Source: an uncultured virus (IMG/VR IMGVR_UViG_3300042868_013692)
Taxonomy: Duplodnaviria > Heunggongvirae > Uroviricota > Caudoviricetes
DNA: 64,000 bases
IMG/VR virus record: IMGVR_UViG_3300042868_013692
Direction: 5' to 3' (one strand)
In this document: positions 3,713 through 52,536 of the stretch, in pieces
How positions within the stretch are numbered: position 1 is the stretch's first letter
Layout: each line of letters starts with the position of its first letter
Program-made: the position numbers and the translations under genes
Notes under the pieces: generated by a model
Database searches by the model: none
Seen by the model: only the letters and a program-made list of their open reading frames with translations
Told to the model about the DNA's origin: nothing

Positions 3713-3785
3713 TACAGGATACAGGAATCGAACCTGTCTACCACAAATTATGAGTTTGTTGCCTTAACCTCTCGGCCAATCCTGC
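3713..3785 (-). tRNA. tRNA with CAT anticodon (probably Ile2/lysidine type; Met not excluded)
   Basis: Cloverleaf GCAGGAT...ATCCTGT-A; anticodon arm ACAAA-CTCATAA-TTTGT; T arm ACAGG-TTCGATT-CCTGT. Confidence 0.9.
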
Positions 3786-16961: not shown

Positions 16962-17281
16962 TTATTTAATCCTAATTCTGATTTGCGCTAAATTTAGACA
17001 AGTCGTTTCTACAATTGGCAGGGTTCTTCAGTTTCTTTTTTATAATCTATATCAGTCGCTGCCATCAATTTGGCATTCATTAAACTCGTGTGCAGCAAAT
17101 TCCCTGGTAAAGAAATCGAAGGCTTGAATTCTAAATCTGTAGCTTTTGTAGATTTTTCAAGAAGTTCTAATTCAGATTCGATAAGTTTTTTGCTTCTATC
17201 AATGCTTTTTTGTATTGTCTGATGTATTTTTGATCAATCATTTTTATAATTTCCCTGTGCTGCTTACTAATTCCTGTGTTT

Positions 17282-17310
17282 ATAATACTATGGCTAACAA
17301 ACAAAGTCAA
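17282..17310 (-). promoter_or_regulatory. conserved phage promoter
   Basis: TTGACT-TTGTTTGTTAGCCATAG-TATTAT. Confidence 0.8.
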
Positions 17311-17333
17311 CCCTGCTTTCAAAATCATTTTTA

Positions 17334-17755
17334 TATTACAAACGTATTACAAGAATTTTAAATACAGGTGCGTGTTTGCATAATTTTTTGATTTTAATCG
17401 AAAATAAAGTTGGGAAGATGATCACTTTCTTATAGGAAACTGTCCTTTTTTCTTTGCATCTTCCCTTTACTTTTGACACGCCTTATGTTATACTCCGCCA
17501 CAGATTTTTTAACGAGAGAATGCGGGTTTGAGGCGTGTTACAAGATTTTGATTTTGGCGACATTGGAAAAGGCTGGGTGCAAGTGTCTGTTTTGCCGGTT
17601 TGGAGACGGCTGCGGGGGAGCGATCGCCAAAGCTGCCAGCCTTACTGCGCGGGGATTGCAATATGTTTTTAGCAGTAAAACTGGGTATCCATTGGGCTTT
17701 CTGCCTATGGTGCGGGGCGTTGGCGAGGCGCAAAGGCTTCGTTGCGGGTTGATTA
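17334..17755 (+). repeat. dispersed element copy 2: leader plus 1 divergent unit
   Basis: Same leader (GGGAAGATG...CATCTTCCC, promoter) and GACGGCTGCGGGGGAGCGATCGC core. Confidence 0.9.
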
Positions 17756-17795
17756 GGTTGGCACTCAGTAACATGGAAAATATCTAAAAATAGGG

Positions 17796-17824
17796 TTGAC
17801 TTTGGGTGTTATCCATAGTATTAT
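17796..17824 (+). promoter_or_regulatory. conserved phage promoter
   Basis: TTGACT-TTGGGTGTTATCCATAG-TATTAT. Confidence 0.8.
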
Positions 17825-17853
17825 AGATAAAGAAATAAAAACCAAGAAAGCAA

Positions 17854-18246
17854 ATGCAAACCGAATTAATTAACTTATCTACAGGACTAGAAAACGTTTT
17901 TCCTCCTGATTGGGCTATGTTGTACGACCCAAAAACAAGATATAAAAAACTTGTCGAGGTTGTAAAAAAAACAAAAACACAAATTACCATCAAAGGAGAA
18001 ACTAAATACAATATCTCGAAAGGAATTACCATTAATGGAGAAACTAAATACAATATCTCGACAGGAAAAATAGTGCCAAGCAACCCAAATCATGCTTATT
18101 TACTAAGAGCTTTAACACTAGAGGAAATTGATGACATTGGCCGATTAGAAGCAAGAGAGTTTATTATTTGCGATATCAAAGAAAACCTTCATTCTTTAGA
18201 TATTGATTCCTTGACAGAAATGGCTAAAGCTTATTTTAGTGACTAG
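17854..18246 (+). CDS. hypothetical protein with an internal 42-bp duplication
   Basis: ITIKGETKYNISKG-ITINGETKYNISTG. Confidence 0.75.
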   Translation: MQTELINLSTGLENVFPPDWAMLYDPKTRYKKLVEVVKKTKTQITIKGETKYNISKGITINGETKYNISTGKIVPSNPNHAYLLRALTLEEIDDIGRLEAREFIICDIKENLHSLDIDSLTEMAKAYFSD

Positions 18247-18526
18247 ACATCATTAAAACGAGAAAAAAAGAGCATAAAAGAAACCAAAGAACAAGTGTAA
18301 AGCTAATGAACAGAGAAACAGAAATAAAGTTTCAAGCAGCTACCAGTAATAAGATATCTTCTTTTGAACTTTCAGCGATTACTGAAATGGTGGCTAATGA
18401 AGAGTGTTGAAGTATTAGATAGTAGCCAGATACTAGAAAATATGTTAGACCCCAGAAATATATCTAATTCTCCTGGAGACAGAGTACGTAAACGGGTTGA
18501 ACTGTTAAAGAAAGAGGAAAACTAAA

Positions 18527-18799
18527 ATGATTATTTGCCTAATAGAAACCTATAAATACTCGTGGGAGGGTCAAGGTGAGATGTACATAATAGATACCTC
18601 TCTATTGAGTTCTGAACCTTTCAGGTCGTTTCTAGAGTCTGCACCAAGCTCGCTATATATTGGGGATGGAGAGTTTTGCACAAGCGAGAAACTAGGCTGG
18701 AGTTGGCAGTATGAGTCAGATATTCAGAGAGCAGTAGTGAAACCGCCGCAGCTAGTTGAGAAGTTAGTATCAGTAACGTTTGATAACCTAGCAGAATAA
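18527..18799 (+). CDS. hypothetical protein
   Basis: GAGG RBS; followed by a hairpin terminator. Confidence 0.7.
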   Translation: MIICLIETYKYSWEGQGEMYIIDTSLLSSEPFRSFLESAPSSLYIGDGEFCTSEKLGWSWQYESDIQRAVVKPPQLVEKLVSVTFDNLAE

Positions 18800-19268
18800 A
18801 GCCCATAAGAGTTTATCTTATGGGCTTTAGCAGAAGGGTACAAAGAGGAAGTCTATAACTTAATAACCCAGCTTAGGTTTGAACACCAGGAGTTAACAGA
18901 ATACTTCAACAACAAAACCTAAAACAGGAATAAAACAATGCTTAACGAATTAAAGGAAATTCTGTATTCAGTGCAGCTAGTAAGACAACTGCTTGGTGGT
19001 AGTTGGTATCTTGTAGCTGACTACAACAGAGACAAAGCTGTGTGGTCTACAAAACCACCGGATGGCTATCAAGTTCTAGATGTAGAAGAATGGGTTTAAG
19101 TCTACAATATCAACATAAGTAAGAGGAAACAAATATGCCCCTGACAAAACAACTTGAAGATTTATTCTCAGAATTAAACGCAAATCCTTCCCCTACCTAC
19201 AGCCAGCTAAAGGAGGAAAATTAGGAAATGTTAAAGCAGATCAGAATTGGCTTGATGGCAACCGCTTA

Positions 19269-19550
19269 GTGTTTAGGAGCGCAATTTCGGAAGTTTTAGA
19301 TTGCTACCAAACTGACTCGCTCATTAAGAATACAACAGATCTACTAGATAAAAACCTTGGACATTCTAACTGGATAGAAGATATCGGAGAAAACCCAGAA
19401 GGAACTGCTGAAGCTTATACCAAGTTGTATAAAGACTTAGACTTAAACAAGTTTTGGACTCAAGTAGGACTAACTGTAACTGTAGGAGAGAACTGTAGGG
19501 TTGCTACTGAACAACCAGAGGATGATTGTTTTATAGGGAATAGACAATGA
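19269..19550 (+). CDS. hypothetical protein
   Basis: Stop overlaps the next ATG (ATGA); start uncertain. Confidence 0.55.
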   Translation: MFRSAISEVLDCYQTDSLIKNTTDLLDKNLGHSNWIEDIGENPEGTAEAYTKLYKDLDLNKFWTQVGLTVTVGENCRVATEQPEDDCFIGNRQ

Positions 19551-20635
19551 AGAGAACTGAAGTTGAACAAAGAGCAATCTTTATAGGTTTAGCTGGTAGT
19601 CATGGTTATGGTTTAAACCGTCCCGAATCAGACTACGACTATCGAGGTGTGTTTATTGCCCCGAAGTCCTACTATCTAGGATTTAATACCATTGAGCAGA
19701 AGGATGCTGGCTGGGATGAACCAGGGCTGTTTCCTTTTATAGATGGCAATGAAGACACTGTAATTTATGAGTTAAGAAAAGTTACTCAATTACTGGCTAA
19801 TGCTAACCCCAACGTCTTAGAGCTGCTATGGCTAACAAACTACCCCTTCAAGAGTGAAGTTGGTCAGCATCTGATAGACCACCGTGACCTCTTTCTCAGC
19901 AAGAAGGTAAAGCATACCTACACAGGTTACGCATTTGCTCAAATTAAGAAGATAGAAACTCACCGCAAGTGGCTTCTAAGCCCACCTAGCAAACAGCCTC
20001 TCCCGTCAGACTTTGGTATTACTAATGAAGAACCCTTATCAAAAGAAGAGCTAAACGCGTTCTTAGAATATCTTTACTTGTTAGTGAGAGGCAAAGTTGA
20101 GTACCTGGAAAAGTCGGAAGAGTTATACAAGCTCCTCACTGCCGATATTGACTTTAAAGGTCTGTTAAAACAGCACCCTCTACCTGACGACACTCTAGAG
20201 TATACAGAAAAGCTGACTTATGGGCGTAAAGACTTTATCAGACTTCTTCAGAAGAGCCAGGGCTACCACAACGCTTTAAGAGAATGGAATGCTTATCTAT
20301 CCTGGCAGAAGAATAGAAACCCTGCTAGGGCTGGTATGGAGCGGCTGGCTGGCTATGATCTTAAACACGGAATGCACTGCATTAGATTGTTAAAAGGTGG
20401 TGTAGAGATTCTGCAGGGTAAGGGAGTCTTGGTTGACAGAAACCTGGCTGGTGATGCTGCTGAGTTAAAGGCTATCTTAAAAGGCGACTACTCCTATGAG
20501 GAACTAAAACAACTGTCAGAAGACCTGCTTGCCCAGATGATTGTAGTGTACGAGCAATCAACACTGCCCCACCACCCTAACCAAAACAAGATTAATGACC
20601 TGTGTATGGAACTAGTAGAAATGCAAGGTTGGTAG
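19547..20635 (+). CDS. Pol-beta superfamily nucleotidyltransferase (YcgL/RlaP-like)
   Basis: GSHGYGLNRPESDYDYRGVF (hGS...DxD), ANPNVLELLW, GYDLKHGMHCIRLL. Confidence 0.88.
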   Translation: MKRTEVEQRAIFIGLAGSHGYGLNRPESDYDYRGVFIAPKSYYLGFNTIEQKDAGWDEPGLFPFIDGNEDTVIYELRKVTQLLANANPNVLELLWLTNYPFKSEVGQHLIDHRDLFLSKKVKHTYTGYAFAQIKKIETHRKWLLSPPSKQPLPSDFGITNEEPLSKEELNAFLEYLYLLVRGKVEYLEKSEELYKLLTADIDFKGLLKQHPLPDDTLEYTEKLTYGRKDFIRLLQKSQGYHNALREWNAYLSWQKNRNPARAGMERLAGYDLKHGMHCIRLLKGGVEILQGKGVLVDRNLAGDAAELKAILKGDYSYEELKQLSEDLLAQMIVVYEQSTLPHHPNQNKINDLCMELVEMQGW

Positions 20636-20747
20636 GTTTTTAACAACTAAGTTATAATAAGACTAAGGGACCGCAAAACGCCTTGCTTTAAGCAGAACGG
20701 ATAGTCCGCGCTGAGAGTATATGCGCCCAGTATAAAGGTAAGCTGGT

Positions 20748-20846
20748 TGGTAGGTGGCAGATCGGAGACGCTCTTGTCTAGTGCTGTTTAGACGTGAACA
20801 GTGCGGTGGCACAAGGAAAGTTAGGTTCGACTCCTAACCCTACTAA
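20748..20846 (+). ncRNA. tRNA-like RNA with an elongated anticodon arm
   Basis: Acceptor TGGTAGG/CCTACTA, D-arm-like TGGCAGATCGGAGACGC, T arm GTTAGG-TTCGACT-CCTAAC, stem CTTGT/ACAAG enclosing 33 nt. Confidence 0.7.
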
Positions 20847-20924
20847 TTGCCCATAAATGCTCCTTGAAGGTTATACGTTTTAGGCTAGTTGGGGCAAAGC
20901 TAGTCTAAAACTTTCTCAATCAAG

Positions 20925-20953
20925 TTGACAGTTCGTTAAAGTTGTGCTACACT
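20925..20953 (+). promoter_or_regulatory. promoter of the tRNA cluster
   Basis: TTGACA-17 bp-TACACT with extended TG. Confidence 0.7.
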
Positions 20954-21010
20954 AGTTTTAGTGGAGGGAGCGAGAGGGTATACACTTGACCTTCTCTCTA
21001 CTGCCAACAA

Positions 21011-21082
21011 GTCCCTGTCGAACATTGGTTAGTTCACTAGGTTTTCATCCTAGCAAAGAGAGTTCGATCCTCTCCAGGGATA
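21011..21082 (+). tRNA. tRNA-Glu(TTC)
   Basis: GTCCCTG...CAGGGAT-A; anticodon arm CTAGG-TTTTCAT-CCTAG; T arm GAGAG-TTCGATC-CTCTC. Confidence 0.9.
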
Positions 21083-21240
21083 CTTCTCGTATAACGAAAA
21101 ACAGCACTACACTGAAGTTGTGTGGCTCCATGCCAGCAGCCAATGTAGACACAGAATGGCAAAGCTGTGAACAGAATAAAGCCCGGTAGTTTTCTCACCC
21201 TAGCAGCAATGCCTGAACAACTAGGAGTTTAACGTTAGCA

Positions 21241-21266
21241 TCCTTTGTGGTGTAAGGGAAAGCACA
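21241..21266 (+). pseudogene. 5' tRNA fragment (acceptor strand plus D arm) abutting tRNA-Asp
   Basis: TCCTTTG-TG-GTGTAAGGGAAAGCAC-A with no anticodon or T arm. Confidence 0.5.
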
Positions 21267-21337
21267 GGGGCTATAGGTTAATGGTAAACCCTAAGATTGT
21301 CGATCTTAAGTTGGGAGTTCGATCCTCCCTAGCCTCG
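21267..21337 (+). tRNA. tRNA-Asp(GTC)
   Basis: GGGGCTA...TAGCCTC-G; TAAGA-TTGTCGA-TCTTA; GGGAG-TTCGATC-CTCCC. Confidence 0.9.
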
Positions 21338-21358
21338 TTCTAGTTAGCTAGAAGTCAT

Positions 21359-21432
21359 TCCCCTGTAGCTCAGTTGGTTAGAGCGCGAAACTGTTAATTT
21401 CGATGCCGCACGTTCGAGTCGTGCCGGGGGAG
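21359..21432 (+). tRNA. tRNA-Asn(GTT)
   Basis: TCCCCTG...CGGGGGA-G; CGAAA-CTGTTAA-TTTCG; GCACG-TTCGAGT-CGTGC. Confidence 0.93.
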
Positions 21433-21454
21433 TTTTAAACCTAGGCTGGTATTA

Positions 21455-21634
21455 ATGCAAGAACAAGAAGAAACCATTAAAGGAACTGTACATCTCAAAG
21501 ATGGTAGCGTTGCCAGAATTGATATTGACTACCTGGCAGAGTTCTTGGAAACTAACAAAGACAATATTGTTGTGAGAAAGTTCATACGACGTGGATCAGT
21601 TAGAGGGGACTTAAACACCCTAAAACTAGACTAG
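21455..21634 (+). CDS. 59-aa hypothetical protein (below the ORF-track cutoff)
   Basis: MQEQEETIKGTVHLKDGSVARIDIDYLAEFLE... Confidence 0.55.
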   Translation: MQEQEETIKGTVHLKDGSVARIDIDYLAEFLETNKDNIVVRKFIRRGSVRGDLNTLKLD

Positions 21635-21969
21635 AAGTAATCATCTCCACTCCAGCTTCCACCATCATTTCTACTAGTACCCCAGCCTTTATAAGCTGTC
21701 TTTATCTGTGCAGCTAGTTCACGCCCAGCTCCTCCAAAAGCTATATCAGAGTTAGCATCACCTGGACTCATTCTAGCCTCTCTACTCTCAGTTCTTATAG
21801 CTGTGCCAGGTATAGCTGCGCTTAAGTCGCTCATTAAGTGCCAGGCTACCACCGCTACTGCATCACAGATGTCTTTAGAATTATGAACAATGATACCAGC
21901 AGCTAAAGCAAAGTTATCCCACTCATCAACCTCAAGATCATAAGATAACCCTAGACCAAGGTATTGACT
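21631..21969 (-). pseudogene. 3' fragment of an intein-containing gene, probably a foreign terminase large subunit
   Basis: Open frame SQYLGLGLSYDLEVDEWDNFALAAGIIVHN|SKDICDAVAVVAWHL: intein C-terminal HN-Ser junction plus an SKDxxDAV motif. Confidence 0.75.
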
Positions 21970-22314
21970 TCACGAAAGCCAATATTCATTGTGGGCAAAA
22001 CCTAGTATTTTTTGGCTACAACGAAAGCTATCTTCGAGAGAAGCTAGAGTGCATTTACGGCACTTCATTAGCCAAGAAGATTATTCCAGAAAGCGATCGC
22101 GCACAAGGAGAATAGCGATATACCGAGGATTGTGAAATACTGAATCTGCCTTGGGTAGTAATCAACAAAAACTCATTTGATATCGTTAGCAAAATAGGAT
22201 ACGAGCCTATTGAATGGTATATTTAGTCAATGTAAATACGCGCTACATTTAATTAAATATAGCGGGTATTTACATAAAAATATAGCAAATATAAACTGCG
22301 TTGATTGATGTAAA

Positions 22315-22899
22315 TTACAAAAGAATAAAATCCTTGGGTTTTAACCCCTCTACTAAATTTTCTTTTATCCAATCAGGCAAGCCCTCTGGATACATATCTA
22401 GAATGTTTCTAAATGTAAACCCAATAACACCAAAGCTACCACCTTTTGCTGCATCTATCCCCGCTCTTATGCAACAATGAACTGGACTTGACCAATCCGA
22501 CACTATCCTTTCTTTGAGGCTGTCATACTCCTCCTCGCTCATAGAGTCTCCGTATTTATCTATAACCTTTTTCTGGCTTCTGTTGGCGTGTTCGTATGGA
22601 CTCCAATATATGTCCTGCTCAATACATTCACTCAATACTGTGGAGAGATAAACGGGGTATTCTGGCTTATCTTTGTTATACCTCTTCCATGTGTATATTT
22701 TATCGTTCGGGGAATATGGCAAAACATTATCCCAGGATTCGTAGAGGCTCAAGTCATCGTGGATGGTTTCAAAAACAGCGTTGATGCTGCTAATTATCCA
22801 CTCTAAGGACGGTCTTTGTGAGTGGCGATAACAGGTTTTAGCCATTCTCAAAGAAAAATCAATCCATCTTTGATTTTTGATTTCTGTTTTTGTGTTCAT
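22315..22899 (-). CDS. hypothetical protein
   Basis: ~194-aa ORF. Confidence 0.75.
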   Translation of the reverse strand: MNTKTEIKNQRWIDFSLRMAKTCYRHSQRPSLEWIISSINAVFETIHDDLSLYESWDNVLPYSPNDKIYTWKRYNKDKPEYPVYLSTVLSECIEQDIYWSPYEHANRSQKKVIDKYGDSMSEEEYDSLKERIVSDWSSPVHCCIRAGIDAAKGGSFGVIGFTFRNILDMYPEGLPDWIKENLVEGLKPKDFILL

Positions 22900-23263
22900 A
22901 TTTTTTGTTATTTGCACATAAATTTAATCACTAAAGTTCTGTATGTCTGACTTATGTTTGGGACATCTGAGAAATCCCCAAGTCTTGAAGACTAAAAACC
23001 ATCAAAAAAAAGTTTACTGATTAGCAGAATGTGATTCACAAAGGTTGTGAATCCCCTCAGTGTCTCCGGCTTCTTCTAAGGTATTCATCTGTGTCCAAAA
23101 GTCGTCAGACCGCTTTATAGCCTCTTGGGTTTGGGGTGGCAATTCAGAAACTAGGACTTCCTCATCTCTACCCCAAACAGACACAAATTCCGTTCTTACA
23201 ATTTTAGCCCTTTTGTTTTCTCCTTCTTGTTGATTTTTTATAGTGAACCATTGGCTTTGCAGA

Positions 23264-23515
23264 CTAATAACTATCCAGTCCCATAACCTTCTTTTTTGGT
23301 TCTGGTCTTTCTGTTTTCCATTTTTTGATGCTGGTTTCGTAGAATTTTTGTCGAGGATTACTGTTCCAGGATGCTATCACGAAACCTATTTCAAGGTTGA
23401 CTTCTAATATCCTGACTCTGTATAATGCGCGAATACTTAATTCAGTGTTTCCAAGTTTTTGAGTTTCGACGCTGTAAACAAGCTGTCCTGGTTTTAGTTT
23501 TTTAATGTCTGCCAT
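23264..23515 (-). CDS. small hypothetical protein
   Basis: 83 aa, directly behind a conserved promoter. Confidence 0.75.
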   Translation of the reverse strand: MADIKKLKPGQLVYSVETQKLGNTELSIRALYRVRILEVNLEIGFVIASWNSNPRQKFYETSIKKWKTERPEPKKKVMGLDSY

Positions 23516-23548
23516 GTTAGTTGATTTTTGTTTTTTCTTTATTCTTGT

Positions 23549-23577
23549 ATAATACTATGGTTAACAAAGAAAGTCAA
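23549..23577 (-). promoter_or_regulatory. conserved phage promoter
   Basis: TTGACT-TTCTTTGTTAACCATAG-TATTAT. Confidence 0.8.
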
Positions 23578-23645
23578 CTACATTTTTTTAATTTTTTCTG
23601 TGGATCTTTAAGCTAAATCCACAGATTCACGGCTAAATCAAATTT

Positions 23646-24155
23646 TTAGAAGCCATCAATATGGCTGCGGCACAAAGCCCAGTCAATAATATCGGTGTGA
23701 TTAAACGCGAGTTTTTCCTGCTTCCATCCATTCCTAGTTACTTCCATCCACTTAACTTCTGTGACCTCAGAGCTAGTTTTTAGTTCTGGGAGTTCTTCTA
23801 CCTTGCAATTAACAATAAATCGCAGCGATACCGTCTCGTTTTCGCTCGGATTGGGGTCAGACATAACCGCATCTGGCTGAGGATTTCTATTGAAACAAAA
23901 ATCAGACAATTTTATGCCTAATTCCTCAAGAACCTCTCTTTCAGCAGCTTCATAAGCAGACTCGCCCCAATCTAGAAAACCGCAAGGAATACCCCAGTGT
24001 TCTGGATATAAATTTAATTCTTTTGAGCGTTTACCGAGTGGCACATAGGTCAACCCTTCGCACTTAAACAATGGGATAACCACCACCGCTACGCTGCGGG
24101 ATATCCAGTAATTTTTGCCGTCTTCGCCTTTGATTTGAAAATTTGGAGTTGACAT
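23646..24155 (-). CDS. Nudix hydrolase
   Basis: Nudix box GFLDWGESAYEAAEREVLEELGI; LAFNH. Confidence 0.92.
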   Translation of the reverse strand: MSTPNFQIKGEDGKNYWISRSVAVVVIPLFKCEGLTYVPLGKRSKELNLYPEHWGIPCGFLDWGESAYEAAEREVLEELGIKLSDFCFNRNPQPDAVMSDPNPSENETVSLRFIVNCKVEELPELKTSSEVTEVKWMEVTRNGWKQEKLAFNHTDIIDWALCRSHIDGF

Positions 24156-24221
24156 ACATGAACAATTAAATTAACTATCTCGCCTTAATTTTAATAGTAT
24201 GCATCTAATTCTATATTTGCA

Positions 24222-24656
24222 TCAAAATACAATCCCCCACAAAAACAGAATAAGATAATTTATTCTTAATCGCCAAGCAGTAAACCAATGTTGATGATTA
24301 TCAATTCCCCCGCGCTGTATCCAGATTTTATGATAATGCAATGACCTGCGGCTTTTGCTAGTTCCATAACTATTTTGATGACACTCTTTGCAAATGGGAA
24401 CAATATCAAACCCTGGAATCTCAAAACCAGAAATTGATTTCACTGGCAAGTTCAGCAGCAACAACCCCAGCGTTCTCCTTAATAGCGATCGCCTGTAATG
24501 GAGATGGTGAACTATCTGTGCATCCCCATGAAAAGGGTTATTAGTGCAAAGCGGCTGCATTTTAGTTGTGTGCTTTACCTTCGAGTGCCAATTCTCGCTA
24601 TATTTAAAGTGTTCCTGCTTTTTGCTCCCTCGCGCATTTGTTGTTTCTCGTTTCAC
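24222..24656 (-). CDS. HNH-like endonuclease
   Basis: IVHHLHY...IVPICKECHQ. Confidence 0.7.
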   Translation of the reverse strand: MKRETTNARGSKKQEHFKYSENWHSKVKHTTKMQPLCTNNPFHGDAQIVHHLHYRRSLLRRTLGLLLLNLPVKSISGFEIPGFDIVPICKECHQNSYGTSKSRRSLHYHKIWIQRGGIDNHQHWFTAWRLRINYLILFLWGIVF

Positions 24657-47829: not shown

Positions 47830-48753
47830 ATGAACAATCGAAAAGTTGACAATTCCAAAATAAAGGTTTTAAATCTTTTTCAATATCAAAGACGCTCAAA
47901 AAGCCCACTAAGATATCCTGGTGGAAAGCAGAGGGTTATAAAGTACCTAAAAGAGTGTTTCCCCAAGGAGTATAAAGAATATCGTGAGCCGTTTTTAGGT
48001 GGTGGTTCTGTATTTCTTGAGGTGAAATCGCAGCAAAAATGTGACAAATTTTGGGTAAACGATTTAAACCAAGAGGTTTATTTTTTTTGGCAACAGGTTC
48101 AATCAAATCTCCCTGCACTTGTTGATCTGGTTGCCAGAATTAAAAAAGATTCACATAATAGAGAGGGGCGATCGCTTTGGATAGATTTGGTGTATTCTAA
48201 TCCCCAAAAAAGCGGATTCATTGATATCGAGAAATTGACACCACTGGAACGCGCTGCTAGATTTTTTGTTCTAAGTAGGACTACTTTTAGTGGAACAATA
48301 GAGTGTGGCGGATATTCTCAATATGCATTTGACAAAAGATTCACGGACTCGTCCGTCGAGCGATTAGCGCAGATGTCTGGGACTTTTAATGAAGCGCAGA
48401 TTACCTGTGTTGATTATAGCGAAATGCTTTTAGATGGTGGCAGCGATGTGTTTACATTTTTAGATCCGCCATACCACAAAAACAGAAATAGCCGTCTTTA
48501 CGGGCGTAAGGGCGGATTACTACATTTGTTATTTGACCACGCCTTGCTGGCGGAGAATTTGAAAAAATGTCAACATCAGTGGCTTCTTACTTGTGATGAT
48601 TGCAAAACTATTAGAGACTTATTTAGTTTTGCGAATATAAAAGAATTTGAGATCCGCTACTCAATTAATAATGTGGACAAGCAATTTATAACCCCAAACA
48701 GAGAGCTTTTAATTTCAAACTACGATTTCACTTGTATGTATTTAATGTCATAA
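47830..48753 (+). CDS. DNA adenine methyltransferase (Dam/D12 class)
   Basis: SPLRYPGGK, YREPFLGGGSV, NDLN, FLDPPY, ELLISNY. Confidence 0.93.
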   Translation: MNNRKVDNSKIKVLNLFQYQRRSKSPLRYPGGKQRVIKYLKECFPKEYKEYREPFLGGGSVFLEVKSQQKCDKFWVNDLNQEVYFFWQQVQSNLPALVDLVARIKKDSHNREGRSLWIDLVYSNPQKSGFIDIEKLTPLERAARFFVLSRTTFSGTIECGGYSQYAFDKRFTDSSVERLAQMSGTFNEAQITCVDYSEMLLDGGSDVFTFLDPPYHKNRNSRLYGRKGGLLHLLFDHALLAENLKKCQHQWLLTCDDCKTIRDLFSFANIKEFEIRYSINNVDKQFITPNRELLISNYDFTCMYLMS

Positions 48754-49823: not shown

Positions 49824-50342
49824 ATGACACACACAAAGAAAATGATTAATTACAGACCCGCTGGTACAAACCTTTTCCTAGAAAAAACTGAGTCAATTGT
49901 AAACGCTGTAAATTGTCAGGGCATATCTGGTTCAGGCATAGCATATTTTGTTTCCATCAAGTTTCCCAAAGAAACCAAAGTTTACGAAAGAATGTGCGCC
50001 GATAAGGCGATCGCGCCTGGGATTGTCGGTGTAATACCCGCGAAACCAACCGCAGGAAACCCAAACATCAAATACATTTTCGCGCTCCCCACAATCGGCA
50101 CATTTCAAGAATTCAATAAGCTAGATTACGCAGGGAAATTGAACCTTGTAAAAATTGGCTTAGAGGATTTGAGACGGGTGTTGCTAACCATGCCCGAATT
50201 AAAATCAATATCTATCCCTGCCCTTGGGTGCGGTGTAGCTGGGCTAAAATGGGGCGATGTGAAACCTATTATCGAGGAGTTTTTGAGCGATGTACCACAA
50301 GATGTATTTGTAATTGAACCCCGCGACAAGGGCAAGGAATAA
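49824..50342 (+). CDS. macrodomain protein (DarG-like ADP-ribose glycohydrolase)
   Basis: SIVNAVNCQGISGSGIA...KFP; SISIPALGCGVAGLKW. Confidence 0.88.
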   Translation: MTHTKKMINYRPAGTNLFLEKTESIVNAVNCQGISGSGIAYFVSIKFPKETKVYERMCADKAIAPGIVGVIPAKPTAGNPNIKYIFALPTIGTFQEFNKLDYAGKLNLVKIGLEDLRRVLLTMPELKSISIPALGCGVAGLKWGDVKPIIEEFLSDVPQDVFVIEPRDKGKE

Positions 50343-50436: not shown

Positions 50437-51330
50437 ATGAAAACAATCATATCTCATCAAGACAATTTAAGCTTTTTAATTAACGCTGCCAAAAAAAATA
50501 GAATTGCGTCTGCATATCTATTCACCGGGCGCAAAGGTGTTGGTAAATTTACAGTTGCCAAATCTTTCGCCAACACCCTAACAAAAAATCCAATGGCGGA
50601 CATACATATTGTTGCTCCAACATACACAGAAGATGGTGAAATTTTAACTATTGAAGAGGCTTTTGAAAAAGGATTAAATAAAAGAACAAAACCAGTTATT
50701 AGAATTGAGCAAATAAGGGATCTGGACGGTTTTATCTCTCGCAGACCTTTGGGCATCAGCAATAATTATGGTTTCCCATCCAAAAATATTGTCATAATTG
50801 ATGACTGCCAAGAACTAAAGGAAGATAGCATGAACGCATTGCTTAAAAACCTAGAAGAGCCAGGCGCACACACGGTTTTTATCCTCGTTGCTTCTGGCAA
50901 GGTTTCTGACACAATATCCTCAAGATGCCAAGTTTTAAATTTCAGCAGACTTTCAAAAGAAAATTTGCTGGAAATTGCAAAAATTAATTTTTTAGACATC
51001 AATGATAATATCTTGAACATTTGTGACGGCAGTTATGGTGACGCGATCGCCATTAAAGCCGTACTAGAGGAAGTGCCGGAACAAATTATTTGTTCCGCTT
51101 CAACAATACCAACGAAAGTTATTGATTGCTTACAAATTGCAAGAGACATTTCTGCGCTTTCTAGTAGTCAACAAATCGTGCTAATGGAGTACGCGGTTAG
51201 CATGATTTGGATGACTTATTTCAACATGGGGTTTGTCACTATTTTTAACGACTCAATTAATAAGCTAAAAAGCGGAATGCAGTCGCGCTTAACTTTGGAG
51301 GCACTTTACCTAAGCCTATTGAATACATAA
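50437..51330 (+). CDS. holB: DNA polymerase III delta-prime subunit
   Basis: AYLFTGRKGVGK, IRIEQIR, IIDDCQEL..MNALLKNLEEP, TISSRCQ. Confidence 0.9.
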   Translation: MKTIISHQDNLSFLINAAKKNRIASAYLFTGRKGVGKFTVAKSFANTLTKNPMADIHIVAPTYTEDGEILTIEEAFEKGLNKRTKPVIRIEQIRDLDGFISRRPLGISNNYGFPSKNIVIIDDCQELKEDSMNALLKNLEEPGAHTVFILVASGKVSDTISSRCQVLNFSRLSKENLLEIAKINFLDINDNILNICDGSYGDAIAIKAVLEEVPEQIICSASTIPTKVIDCLQIARDISALSSSQQIVLMEYAVSMIWMTYFNMGFVTIFNDSINKLKSGMQSRLTLEALYLSLLNT

Positions 51331-51334
51331 GAAT

Positions 51335-51529
51335 ATGGAGAATACTGAGACGACAGAAATATGCCTTATAATTTCTGATGTTGTGACACCAGAAAATGCA
51401 AATAACAAAATTTTAGAACACTTAGCGCAAAGTCCCAAGAGGATATTGGTAAGACCTGTTGACGAAAATAGGGTTGTTGTCACCGCAGAATACACACAAA
51501 CACTTCAAGAAATAATTGAGTATTTTTAA
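51335..51529 (+). CDS. small hypothetical protein
   Basis: 64 aa filling the gap between holB and holA. Confidence 0.65.
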   Translation: MENTETTEICLIISDVVTPENANNKILEHLAQSPKRILVRPVDENRVVVTAEYTQTLQEIIEYF

Positions 51530-51531
51530 TT

Positions 51532-52536
51532 ATGTCCAGAAAAACAGCAGAGCCAAAAGCGAAAAAAGAGTCAGCAAAAAAACCGCCGGCTAAAAAGCGA
51601 GATATAGGGGCAGATGGTGGTAAAATTTTTATTTTGTGGGGTAACGACGAGTTTTTAATAAACAAGAAAGTAAAAACATTTTCTGATTCGGTTTCTGATT
51701 TTAGGGAATTTAACTTCAATGAGGTTTCTGATATTTCGGATGGTTTAACAACCGCGCTAGAAGCACCATTTGGTTCTCTAAATAGAGTTGTTATTGTTAA
51801 GCAAACGATAAAAGCTGATGACATAGATTTGTTTGAGAGATACCTGCCAATCCCCCAAACATCAACATTGGTAATTGTGTGCGACAGCAAGCCAGACGAG
51901 CGCACAAAAGTCGTCAAACTGCTTAAAACGCAGGGTGAAATCATTGGATATGAAATAATACCAAGTTGGAAAGAAGACGATATCCGGCGACATATTTTGA
52001 AGGTTGCACAGCATCTTGAGGTAAAAATATCTAGCGACGCAATTGACGCTCTAATGGCTGTCACAGGTTCGGACACCTATCGCATTGTTTCCGAGCTTGA
52101 AAAGCTATTTATTTACAAAAACGGTGGGTTGATAGAAAAAGCGGACGTGATGGAAATGCTGCCAGACATATCTGGTAATATTTTCAAGTGCATTAGTGCG
52201 ATCGCAGCAGGTGAAAAACAAAAGGCGTTGATTTTAATTGATGCGCTTTTTCAGGCAAATGAACATCCGTTGAAATTGCACGCAGCGATGGCTTCAACGA
52301 TTAGGACGTGGCTGTTTGTAAAAGAGTTGATGGGTAAAACTGACAACACATCAATTGCGACCGAGGCTGGTATAGGCAATCCACAAAGAGTCTATTTTCT
52401 ATCTCAAGAGGTAAAAAATATTAAACTAGAATGGATTGTGAAATGCTTAATAGGATTAAGCGATCTTGAATTTAAACTCAAGCGTGGTGGTGGAGAATTA
52501 GACTTTAAAGTGTTTATTTCTGAAATGTCGCAATGA
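51532..52536 (+). CDS. holA: DNA polymerase III delta subunit
   Basis: FILWGNDEF, PFGSLNRVV, KPDERTK, SELEKL, ANEHPL, GIGNPQRVYFL (cyanobacterial type). Confidence 0.85.
   Translation: MSRKTAEPKAKKESAKKPPAKKRDIGADGGKIFILWGNDEFLINKKVKTFSDSVSDFREFNFNEVSDISDGLTTALEAPFGSLNRVVIVKQTIKADDIDLFERYLPIPQTSTLVIVCDSKPDERTKVVKLLKTQGEIIGYEIIPSWKEDDIRRHILKVAQHLEVKISSDAIDALMAVTGSDTYRIVSELEKLFIYKNGGLIEKADVMEMLPDISGNIFKCISAIAAGEKQKALILIDALFQANEHPLKLHAAMASTIRTWLFVKELMGKTDNTSIATEAGIGNPQRVYFLSQEVKNIKLEWIVKCLIGLSDLEFKLKRGGGELDFKVFISEMSQ

Follow-up and report, generated by a model that had tools for sequence, protein, structure and literature searches.

The window analysed here, the whole 64,000-nucleotide stretch of the virus record IMGVR_UViG_3300042868_013692 (Caudoviricetes), carries on its plus strand a 99-nucleotide element in the shape of a transfer RNA (tRNA) with a greatly lengthened anticodon arm. 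The element lies downstream of a gene for a Pol-beta nucleotidyltransferase of the RlaP family and heads a cluster of tRNA-Glu, tRNA-Asp and tRNA-Asn genes. Its parts are as follows.

20748..20846, plus strand: tRNA-shaped element of 99 nucleotides with acceptor, weak D arm, extended anticodon arm, 5-nucleotide variable loop and T arm (ARAGORN with introns allowed)
20773..20815, plus strand: extended arm made up of 5 base pairs, a 1-nucleotide bulge, 3 base pairs, a 2-nucleotide GG bulge, a 10-base-pair hairpin and a 4-nucleotide loop (predicted fold)
20780..20805, plus strand: 26-nucleotide insert in the register given by ARAGORN, between loop positions 33 and 34

An earlier note, made from the letters of the sequence, had described tRNA-like arms, a stem CTTGT/ACAAG that encloses 33 nucleotides and an insert that is itself paired, and all of these were found where it had placed them; a tRNA-shaped element with an enlarged anticodon arm is present at these coordinates. 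The anticodon-type stem pairs CTTGT (20773-20777) with ACAAG (20811-20815), and the 33 nucleotides between them (20778-20810), where an ordinary tRNA has 7, pair with each other, CTA with TGG and then GTGCTGTT with AACAGTGC (with two G-U pairs), leaving a loop of 8 nucleotides. The arm is predicted to fold into a near-continuous, bulged helix of 18-19 base pairs with a minimum free energy of -15.5 kcal/mol (z-score, z, of -2.34; 6 of 200 shuffles were equally stable), and both of its bulges, of 1 and 2 nucleotides and 3 base pairs apart, are on the 3' strand. The fold of the whole 99-nucleotide element is less striking, with a z of -1.70 and 13 of 200 shuffles matching it. The acceptor is TGGTAGG/CCTACTA and the T arm is TTAGG-TTCGACT-CCTAA. 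The conserved nucleotides of elbow and core in tRNAs are U8, A14, the D-loop GG and a T loop of the form UUCRANY, and reading of the sequence and of the ARAGORN drawing found U8, A14, GG in the D loop and a T loop UUCGACU in the element. In the same drawing the D stem is weak, with 2 Watson-Crick pairs and an A-C mismatch over 3 positions, and one surplus C stands between the T stem and the acceptor strand. An open reading frame of 49 amino acids on the minus strand (20663-20812) overlaps the element; as a coding gene it was set aside by judgement and taken as a by-product of the RNA gene.

ARAGORN in its default mode missed the element in the 64-kilobase window, where it called four ordinary tRNAs, and Rfam gave no match to it at gathering scores, nor at an expectation value (E) <=10 on 20600-21000. 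By the Rfam model RF00005 the element is thus not a canonical tRNA, while the four ordinary tRNAs of the phage score 55.7-65.9 bits. When introns were allowed, ARAGORN called a 73-nucleotide tRNA-His(gtg) with a 26-nucleotide insert after loop position 33; the intron option had been among the checks proposed in the earlier note. With the intron-aware mode, 30 dinucleotide-preserving shuffles of the window (1.9 megabases) yielded 0 calls and 160 other loci (862 kilobases) yielded 0 calls with an intron, so that the call at the element is not a chance outcome of that permissive mode. That there is no RNA gene at all and that the resemblance to a tRNA arose by chance is barely credible. The modest z of the whole element and the silence of Rfam would fit with chance, but the empty shuffles, the canonical T loop and D-loop GG, the position of the element at the head of a tRNA cluster and the pairs that are kept in a diverged variant all argue against it.

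The variant region is found on a 2300-nucleotide contig (depth 289) from a metatranscriptome labelled marine (run X16), which matches 20303-21264 with 59 differences and 6 insertions or deletions and is about 94% identical. Upstream of 20303 this contig diverges into sequence that is unlike the window, and its RlaP gene there is much more diverged or different. In element positions 1-73 (20748-20820) the variant has eight substitutions, at 20762 and 20763 in the D loop, at 20772 (position 26), at 20786, 20789, 20799 and 20800 in the hairpin and at 20820, the last base of the variable loop. By these changes G39-C52 becomes A-U, altered on both sides, U38-A53 becomes U-G and the loop-closing U42-G49 becomes C-G; all 30 modelled pairs are intact, and the fold and energy of the arm are unchanged. 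When 8 substitutions were placed at random on positions 1-73, using the observed transition share of 71%, all 30 pairs were kept in 2.7% of 200,000 trials and at least one pair-preserving double change arose in 9% of them. The 5' leader has a small hairpin too, but that one has lost a pair in the variant (20723 G>A). The hairpin of the extended arm is probably under structural selection, and the claim of the earlier note that the insert does not look like random decay is borne out by a variant in which every tested pair has been kept. Two other pairings were dropped in the course of this comparison: covariation of the Levitt pair, positions 15 and 48, where the two changes are not isosteric, and a T stem of 6 base pairs formed through G73-C91, since the variant has T at G73.

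Three signals lie around the element.

20629..20658, plus strand: promoter-like site TTGGTA, 18-nucleotide spacer, TATAAT, between RlaP and the element (agreeing with the consensus at 10 of 12 positions)
20877..20911, plus strand: 14-base-pair hairpin 3' of the element, which could be a terminator or a site of processing (20847-20925 folds at -21.3 kcal/mol, z -2.32)
20925..20953, plus strand: promoter-like site TTGACA, 17-nucleotide spacer, TACACT, with TG, ahead of tRNA-Glu (promoter scan; an RNA-library contig starts at 20975)

The element appears to be transcribed from its own promoter. In the variant both hexamers of the site 20629..20658 are kept and three spacer bases are changed, and promoter-like sites are as frequent in the region as expected by chance (4 found, 4.1 expected), which makes them weak evidence. 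The terminator scan made no call at the hairpin 20877..20911, and the variant carries an additional G in the loop of this hairpin. Four metatranscriptome runs from four studies were placed on 20300-21500, all of them as assembled contigs, and the parts of this stretch that they leave uncovered are not evidence of silence. In run X20 a lone contig of 160 nucleotides corresponds to 20692-20851 with 0 differences and with the insert retained, and it is the sole cover of the 1.2-kilobase stretch in that run. In runs X15 and X19 short contigs lie over tRNA-Glu, its leader and its trailer (20975-21161) and over Asp and Asn (21184-21400). These contigs give a slight indication of transcription at the locus and of an unspliced form. 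The earlier note had proposed RNA-seq for spliced or CCA-added forms; here the unspliced one was seen and no joint across the insert was seen in any of the four runs, which is not evidence against splicing because contigs drop rare forms.

The element is identical in three records, which include the near-identical 138-kilobase virus record G001, where it is unchanged (401 of 401 bases), and a metagenome locus of the same phage (L020), and the variant is a fourth record about 94% alike. Exact 21-mers of both element halves had 0 matches in viral contigs, and degenerate patterns, with N at variable sites and with a gapped hairpin, had 0 matches. A blastn search of 50,697 phage records returned only a 20-nucleotide T-arm identity (E = 1) to a 'tRNA-His' of the Gordonia phage GodonK, which was treated as chance. 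This 62-nucleotide annotation (L073 266-327; codon CAU) is an odd, truncated tRNA that ARAGORN does not call, and it shares with the element the exact 20-nucleotide stretch of variable loop and T arm and nothing else. With the covariance model R1 of the element, run over 143 sources, there was besides its own copy no match below E 0.18, the best others being a Gordonia phage tRNA at E 0.18 and two matches far from RlaP at E 0.37 and 0.95. When the element was compared by blastn to the tRNAs and genomes of five Nostocales candidate hosts the best E was 0.3, which rules out a recent copy of a host tRNA from these five genomes.

Confinement to one phage species would suit a relic, that is, a former phage tRNA gene that was disabled by a small hairpin-forming insertion and is now drifting without function. 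The defects of the body, namely the A-C mismatch in the D stem and the surplus C at the junction of T stem and acceptor, point in the same direction, as do the failure of the Rfam tRNA model even at E <=10, a substitution rate as high as that of the flanks and the lack of detectable similarity to the tRNAs of the five candidate hosts. What does not fit with free drift is that 0 of 8 substitutions break a pair and that one change is double-sided (about 3% by chance), when the leader hairpin of the same variant did lose a pair, and that the element comes with its own promoter-like site and hairpin, as well as an RNA-library contig restricted to it. We regard the relic as unlikely, although it deserves to be weighed seriously.

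Removal of the insert leads to another explanation. When 26 nucleotides were deleted in silico in each of 8 registers, default ARAGORN called a tRNA in 8 of 8 cases, with an anticodon that depends on the register: three give His GTG, three Thr AGT, one His ATG and one Pro AGG. It is registers 0-2 that yield GUG, and U33 is regained in register 2 only, with G37. Six of the 8 deleted forms pass the 110% threshold of ARAGORN, and at 120% the four ordinary tRNAs of the phage fail too. By this coarse threshold measure the body of the deleted element is about as good as the ordinary tRNAs of the phage, and its anticodon is ambiguous. Identity of the body to the four phage tRNAs is 49-64%, and among those four it is 55-59%. 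These results would be expected if the insert is a hairpin mini-intron, of which a host nuclease excises 26 nucleotides and a host RNA ligase rejoins the halves, giving a decoding tRNA that is most likely His(GUG). Such a GUG tRNA would accompany the Asp(GUC) and Asn(GUU) tRNAs of the phage, and the pairing kept in the variant is expected if the shape marks the cut sites. Double-strand RNA nucleases leave products with a 2-nucleotide 3' overhang, and in one register, as read from the fold, what is excised is a 10-base-pair stem with a 4-nucleotide loop and an overhang resembling such a product.

The candidate host could supply a ligase, as RtcB was found in all five Nostocales genomes with an RlaP relative and a PF09414 RNA ligase in two of the five. 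Three of these five genomes have an RtcB match that falls into two parts, N-terminal and C-terminal: in G002 (C16:32859-34514) and G006 (C43:48587-50242) both parts are in one open frame of 589 amino acids and in G004 (C150:21990-23908) they are in separate frames of 366 and 246 amino acids, and the split may reflect an inserted element, for example an intein. It also favours a mini-intron that short inserts which are not self-splicing are reported, in excerpts of PMC6784885, for tRNAs of Lak phages.

Several observations stand against a mini-intron. Apart from the missing joint in the four RNA runs, where there were only contigs, the element has no bulge-helix-bulge motif, and the anticodon changes with the register between His, Pro and Thr. 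To our knowledge no protein-dependent tRNA splicing exists in bacteria, which we count against this explanation, and a full-text literature search found no account of the removal of such inserts in bacteria. Scans of open reading frames of the window and G001, run as overlapping sets of 41 against PHROGs, 95 against Pfam and 76 against PHROGs, turned up no RNA ligase, RNase III or polynucleotide kinase. Bacterial tRNA-His is identified by an additional G at position -1 that is paired to C73. The element has T at -1 (20747) and A as its discriminator (20846), so that the pair G-1:C73 is absent, and the acceptor ends with U1-A72 and G2-U71. With U-1/A73, these two pairs, a D stem of 2 pairs and the surplus C, the element is a poor fit to a chargeable tRNA-His, and this is counted for a tRNA look-alike that does not decode. 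On balance we hold a mini-intron to be doubtful, about on a level with the relic. A particular form of it, in which the insert is a true mini-intron that is removed by a bacterial protein-dependent cut-and-rejoin route, is decidedly improbable; here a double-stranded RNA nuclease of the host would cut at the base of the 10-base-pair hairpin, a host ligase would reseal the loop and the host-derived RlaP of the phage would fill or trim the 5' half. If that were true, the phage tRNA would mature only when the RNA-repair response of the host is switched on.

The insert is present as a single copy, with one occurrence in the window when up to 3 mismatches are allowed and no other in 938 kilobases that include the rest of G001, and a mobile hairpin repeat is ruled out by this. 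A tRNA fragment of the attP type was dropped as both halves are present and there is no integrase among the scanned phage open reading frames. Tandem heptanucleotide repeats in cyanobacterial loci (L149 4472-4537 and others) give recurrent 10-nucleotide chance matches to the insert and are unrelated to it.

The gene upstream of the element is the following.

19547..20635, plus strand: open reading frame of 362 amino acids for a Pol-beta nucleotidyltransferase of the RlaP family (PF10127, E 5.4e-22; phrog_388, E 2.1e-51)

The earlier note had named a Pol-beta nucleotidyltransferase upstream, and PF10127 identifies it as RlaP with a score of 79.1 bits against a cut-off of 23. Near its N-terminus is a GS...DYD pattern, which we take to be the nucleotidyltransferase motif, and there was no sequence match to it in PDB. 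Excerpts of PMC12776372 describe RlaP enzymes that add 1-2 nucleotides to the 3'-OH ends of damaged RNA and help to regain tRNA function, and the name RlaP derives, by excerpts of PMC12776372 and PMC7824862, from an association with RNA ligase genes. The best 80 relatives in genomes are all cyanobacterial chromosomal genes with 67-80% identity, mostly from Nostocales (72-80%), and the closest of these 80 are from Dolichospermum/Anabaena (79-80%). Among metagenome loci 50 are 67-80% identical, 2 are 34-35% identical and one is an identical copy, and four viral loci are 35-50% identical. The Nostocales relatives (loci L074-L153) are single-copy genes, and in Anabaena/Dolichospermum they adjoin rplU-rpmA and have no RNA ligase at their side. 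Judging from these similarities, and with the 38% G+C of the phage also fitting a Nostocales host, we infer that the phage RlaP is probably an auxiliary gene captured from a Nostocales host, which points to a host of the Dolichospermum/Anabaena type.

The earlier note had tied the element functionally to this enzyme, and in its strict form the tie would make the RNA a dedicated partner of RlaP, a substrate or guide, with RlaP extending a cut half before ligation, for example. Proximity is in its favour, as the gene ends 112 nucleotides upstream on the same strand and the variant contig likewise has an RlaP 3' end beside the element, and so is the reported activity of the family on damaged RNA ends. 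The relatives of RlaP tell otherwise. At 136 relative loci (4 viral, 52 metagenomic and 80 genomic, some contigs being in two collections) intron-aware ARAGORN found no tRNA within 2.5-3 kilobases in any, and none has a credible match to the covariance model R1, a search for co-occurrence having been proposed in the earlier note. By tblastx of window 17000-24500 the RlaP open reading frame alone is common to 52 of 53 metagenome loci, the exception being L020 of the same phage, and in 10 cyanobacterial loci the neighbours of RlaP are unrelated housekeeping genes and others (L21/L27, CemA, AAA ATPases, acetyltransferases and threonine dehydratase). The ligase neighbourhood of the family is not found here, since there is no RNA ligase in these 10 loci nor among the scanned phage open reading frames, and in the phage a promoter-like site lies between the two genes. 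By comparison of loci, then, a dedicated functional link between the element and RlaP has no support, and we consider a dedicated partnership very improbable, even more so than the cut-and-rejoin route. As the two are neighbours in this one phage lineage, a looser link at the level of a pathway may exist, in which the phage would carry a kit of spare tRNAs and a host-derived RNA-repair enzyme against host responses that cleave tRNA.

Downstream of the element are the ordinary members of the cluster.

21011..21083, plus strand: ordinary tRNA-Glu(TTC) (ARAGORN; Rfam 55.7 bits)
21267..21337, plus strand: ordinary tRNA-Asp(GTC) (ARAGORN; Rfam 64.4 bits)
21358..21433, plus strand: ordinary tRNA-Asn(GTT) (ARAGORN; Rfam 65.9 bits)

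The fourth ordinary tRNA of the window, called by both ARAGORN and Rfam, is tRNA-Met at 3713, and G001, which is estimated to be 83% complete, has no further tRNA genes. The window encodes TerL, ribonucleotide reductase, helicases, a clamp loader and a baseplate protein, and further genes in G001 are for a tail sheath, a Mu-type portal, a major head protein and a DnaE-type polymerase. The phage is a large freshwater myovirus whose host is probably a Nostocales cyanobacterium. Beyond the same phage the relatives of its TerL have 30-32% identity in viral contigs and at most 36% in the 50,697 phage records, and because the closest ones are so distant no family-level comparison is possible. The whole 1.2-kilobase stretch was found in 14 runs from ten studies which were classed as 'DNA?', a guessed type (11 freshwater, 2 lake-water and 1 marine-labelled metagenomes), and some of them may be the source of the window itself. 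The open reading frames 17473-19550 and 21631-24656 have no match in NCBIfam, Pfam or PHROG, and a neighbouring open reading frame of 93 amino acids has no Atlas match.

Other genes of the phage were noted in passing. A protein of 533 amino acids (L009:15656-17257) has a C-terminal ADP-ribosyltransferase domain, PF03496 (E 5e-10), and PHROG likeness to virion proteins, and it could form an NAD/ADP-ribose toolkit together with a macro-domain protein and a NUDIX hydrolase (window 49824-50342; 23646-24155). The replicase genes are for a DnaE-type DNA polymerase III alpha and tau/delta'-like clamp-loader subunits (L008:7046-10864, L008:11590-13104; window 50437-52536) and not for a family A/B polymerase. 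There are at least four DNA methyltransferase genes (L006:3633-5051, L007:15971-17095, L008:10966-11583, window 47830-48753), namely a ParB-fused N6/N4, a C5, a Dam-like and one more, a set which fits a host rich in restriction systems.

The element can be set beside several known systems. The tRNA-like domains of transfer-messenger RNA (tmRNA) and of the bacterial Y RNA YrlA have a long helix in place of the anticodon arm, and the likeness to the element is that in both a mimic of acceptor and T arm is joined to a long helix that does not decode. The element is not a tmRNA, as there is no match to it by Rfam or by ARAGORN -m and no tag reading frame, and no gene for Ro/Rsr, the partner of YrlA, was found among the scanned phage open reading frames. 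Like the protein-spliced introns of archaea and eukaryotes, which depend on EndA and RtcB, the element has a short insert that pairs with loop bases and lengthens the arm, and its candidate host has RtcB. The bulge-helix-bulge motif of those introns is of the form 3-4-3 (two 3-nucleotide bulges on opposite strands and a helix of 4 base pairs), and it is absent from the element, where both bulges are on the 3' strand, which excludes an intron of this kind; we also know of no splicing endonuclease in bacteria. The group I introns of cyanobacterial tRNA-Leu(UAA) and tRNA-fMet occur in the same host phylum and in the same loop, but an insert of 26 nucleotides is far too small for a ribozyme core of about 200 nucleotides or more, and with no Rfam match at E <=10 a group I intron is excluded.

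The nearest likeness found in print is to tRNAs of the Lak megaphages, for which excerpts of Devoto et al. 2019 (PMC6784885) describe 'enigmatic' introns predicted to be 23-141 nucleotides long (Table S6), the authors stating in those excerpts that they knew of no earlier report of phage tRNA introns. The element has in common with them a short insert in the anticodon loop whose deletion regains a standard tRNA, and in these excerpts the Lak inserts too are not of group I, are found only by an intron-aware finder and are kept among close relatives; its 26 nucleotides are within the Lak range. It differs, as far as the same excerpts go, in that the Lak host is Prevotella and not a cyanobacterium, in that several Lak inserts are of 76-141 nucleotides, one of which may hold a tRNA-like fold, whereas the insert here is a plain hairpin, and in that its body is less canonical and its ARAGORN insert site is 33/34 as opposed to 37/38 in Lak.

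The reading that we tentatively prefer, at somewhat less than even confidence, is that the element gives a tRNA-derived RNA which is unable to decode as it is made and which persists and is kept for its shape. The RNA retains the features that tRNA-processing enzymes read, namely U8, A14, the D-loop GG, the T loop and the helix of acceptor and T arm, and it would probably have its ends processed by RNase P and be acted upon by the CCA-adding enzyme. In place of the 7-nucleotide anticodon loop it has a closed helix of 18-19 base pairs with a small cap loop, and because that helix occupies the site of the anticodon loop no codon can be read by the RNA as transcribed. On this reading the RNA would not serve RlaP, its neighbour, as a substrate. 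A look-alike of this kind may act as a decoy that ties up a host factor which binds tRNA, such as a tRNA nuclease induced by stress or defence. The promoter-like site and downstream hairpin of the element, the chance controls, the variant, the unspliced contig and the lack of rejoining enzymes in the phage were all counted for a look-alike. The stress response of Anabaena was also counted for it: in excerpts of PMC8421152 translational stress induces tRNA arrays, rtcB and hen1-pnkP, the array tRNAs are cleaved and a role as a sponge is raised by the authors.

Weighing against a non-decoding look-alike are the following points. No binding partner of the RNA is known and no homologue of the element was found beyond this phage species. 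The structural test comes from one diverged variant and covers element positions 1-73, which lie 5' of the T arm and the 3' acceptor strand, and the substitution density in the element (8 in 73 nucleotides) is not below that of the flanks (25 in 333 nucleotides of RlaP coding sequence and 6 in 112 nucleotides of leader). The contigs of the RNA libraries may contain DNA and cannot reveal RNA ends or rare spliced forms. Finally, once exactly 26 nucleotides are deleted the loop is a normal one that has U33, a purine at 37 and GUG, the natural anticodon of His, which suits an intron equally. Of the overall proposal in the earlier note the anatomy and the non-random insert are upheld and the link to RlaP is not, and between its two choices, a non-decoding mimic of a tRNA or an insert removed by cleavage and ligation, the data do not distinguish.

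For short hairpin inserts in the tRNA genes of phages there is one report in print, which calls them 'enigmatic' (excerpts of PMC6784885), and the question which they raise is whether they are spliced or whether they convert tRNAs into look-alikes that do not decode. The present case removes the tempting but unsupported idea that the RNA of the element is a partner of RlaP, and it adds to that question a natural variant with a pair-preserving double change and a contig of environmental RNA in which the insert is retained. It also adds a host group, Dolichospermum/Anabaena, that is likely to be culturable and for which there are already studies of tRNA cleavage, RtcB and tRNA arrays, and with such a host the question would be open to testing at the bench.

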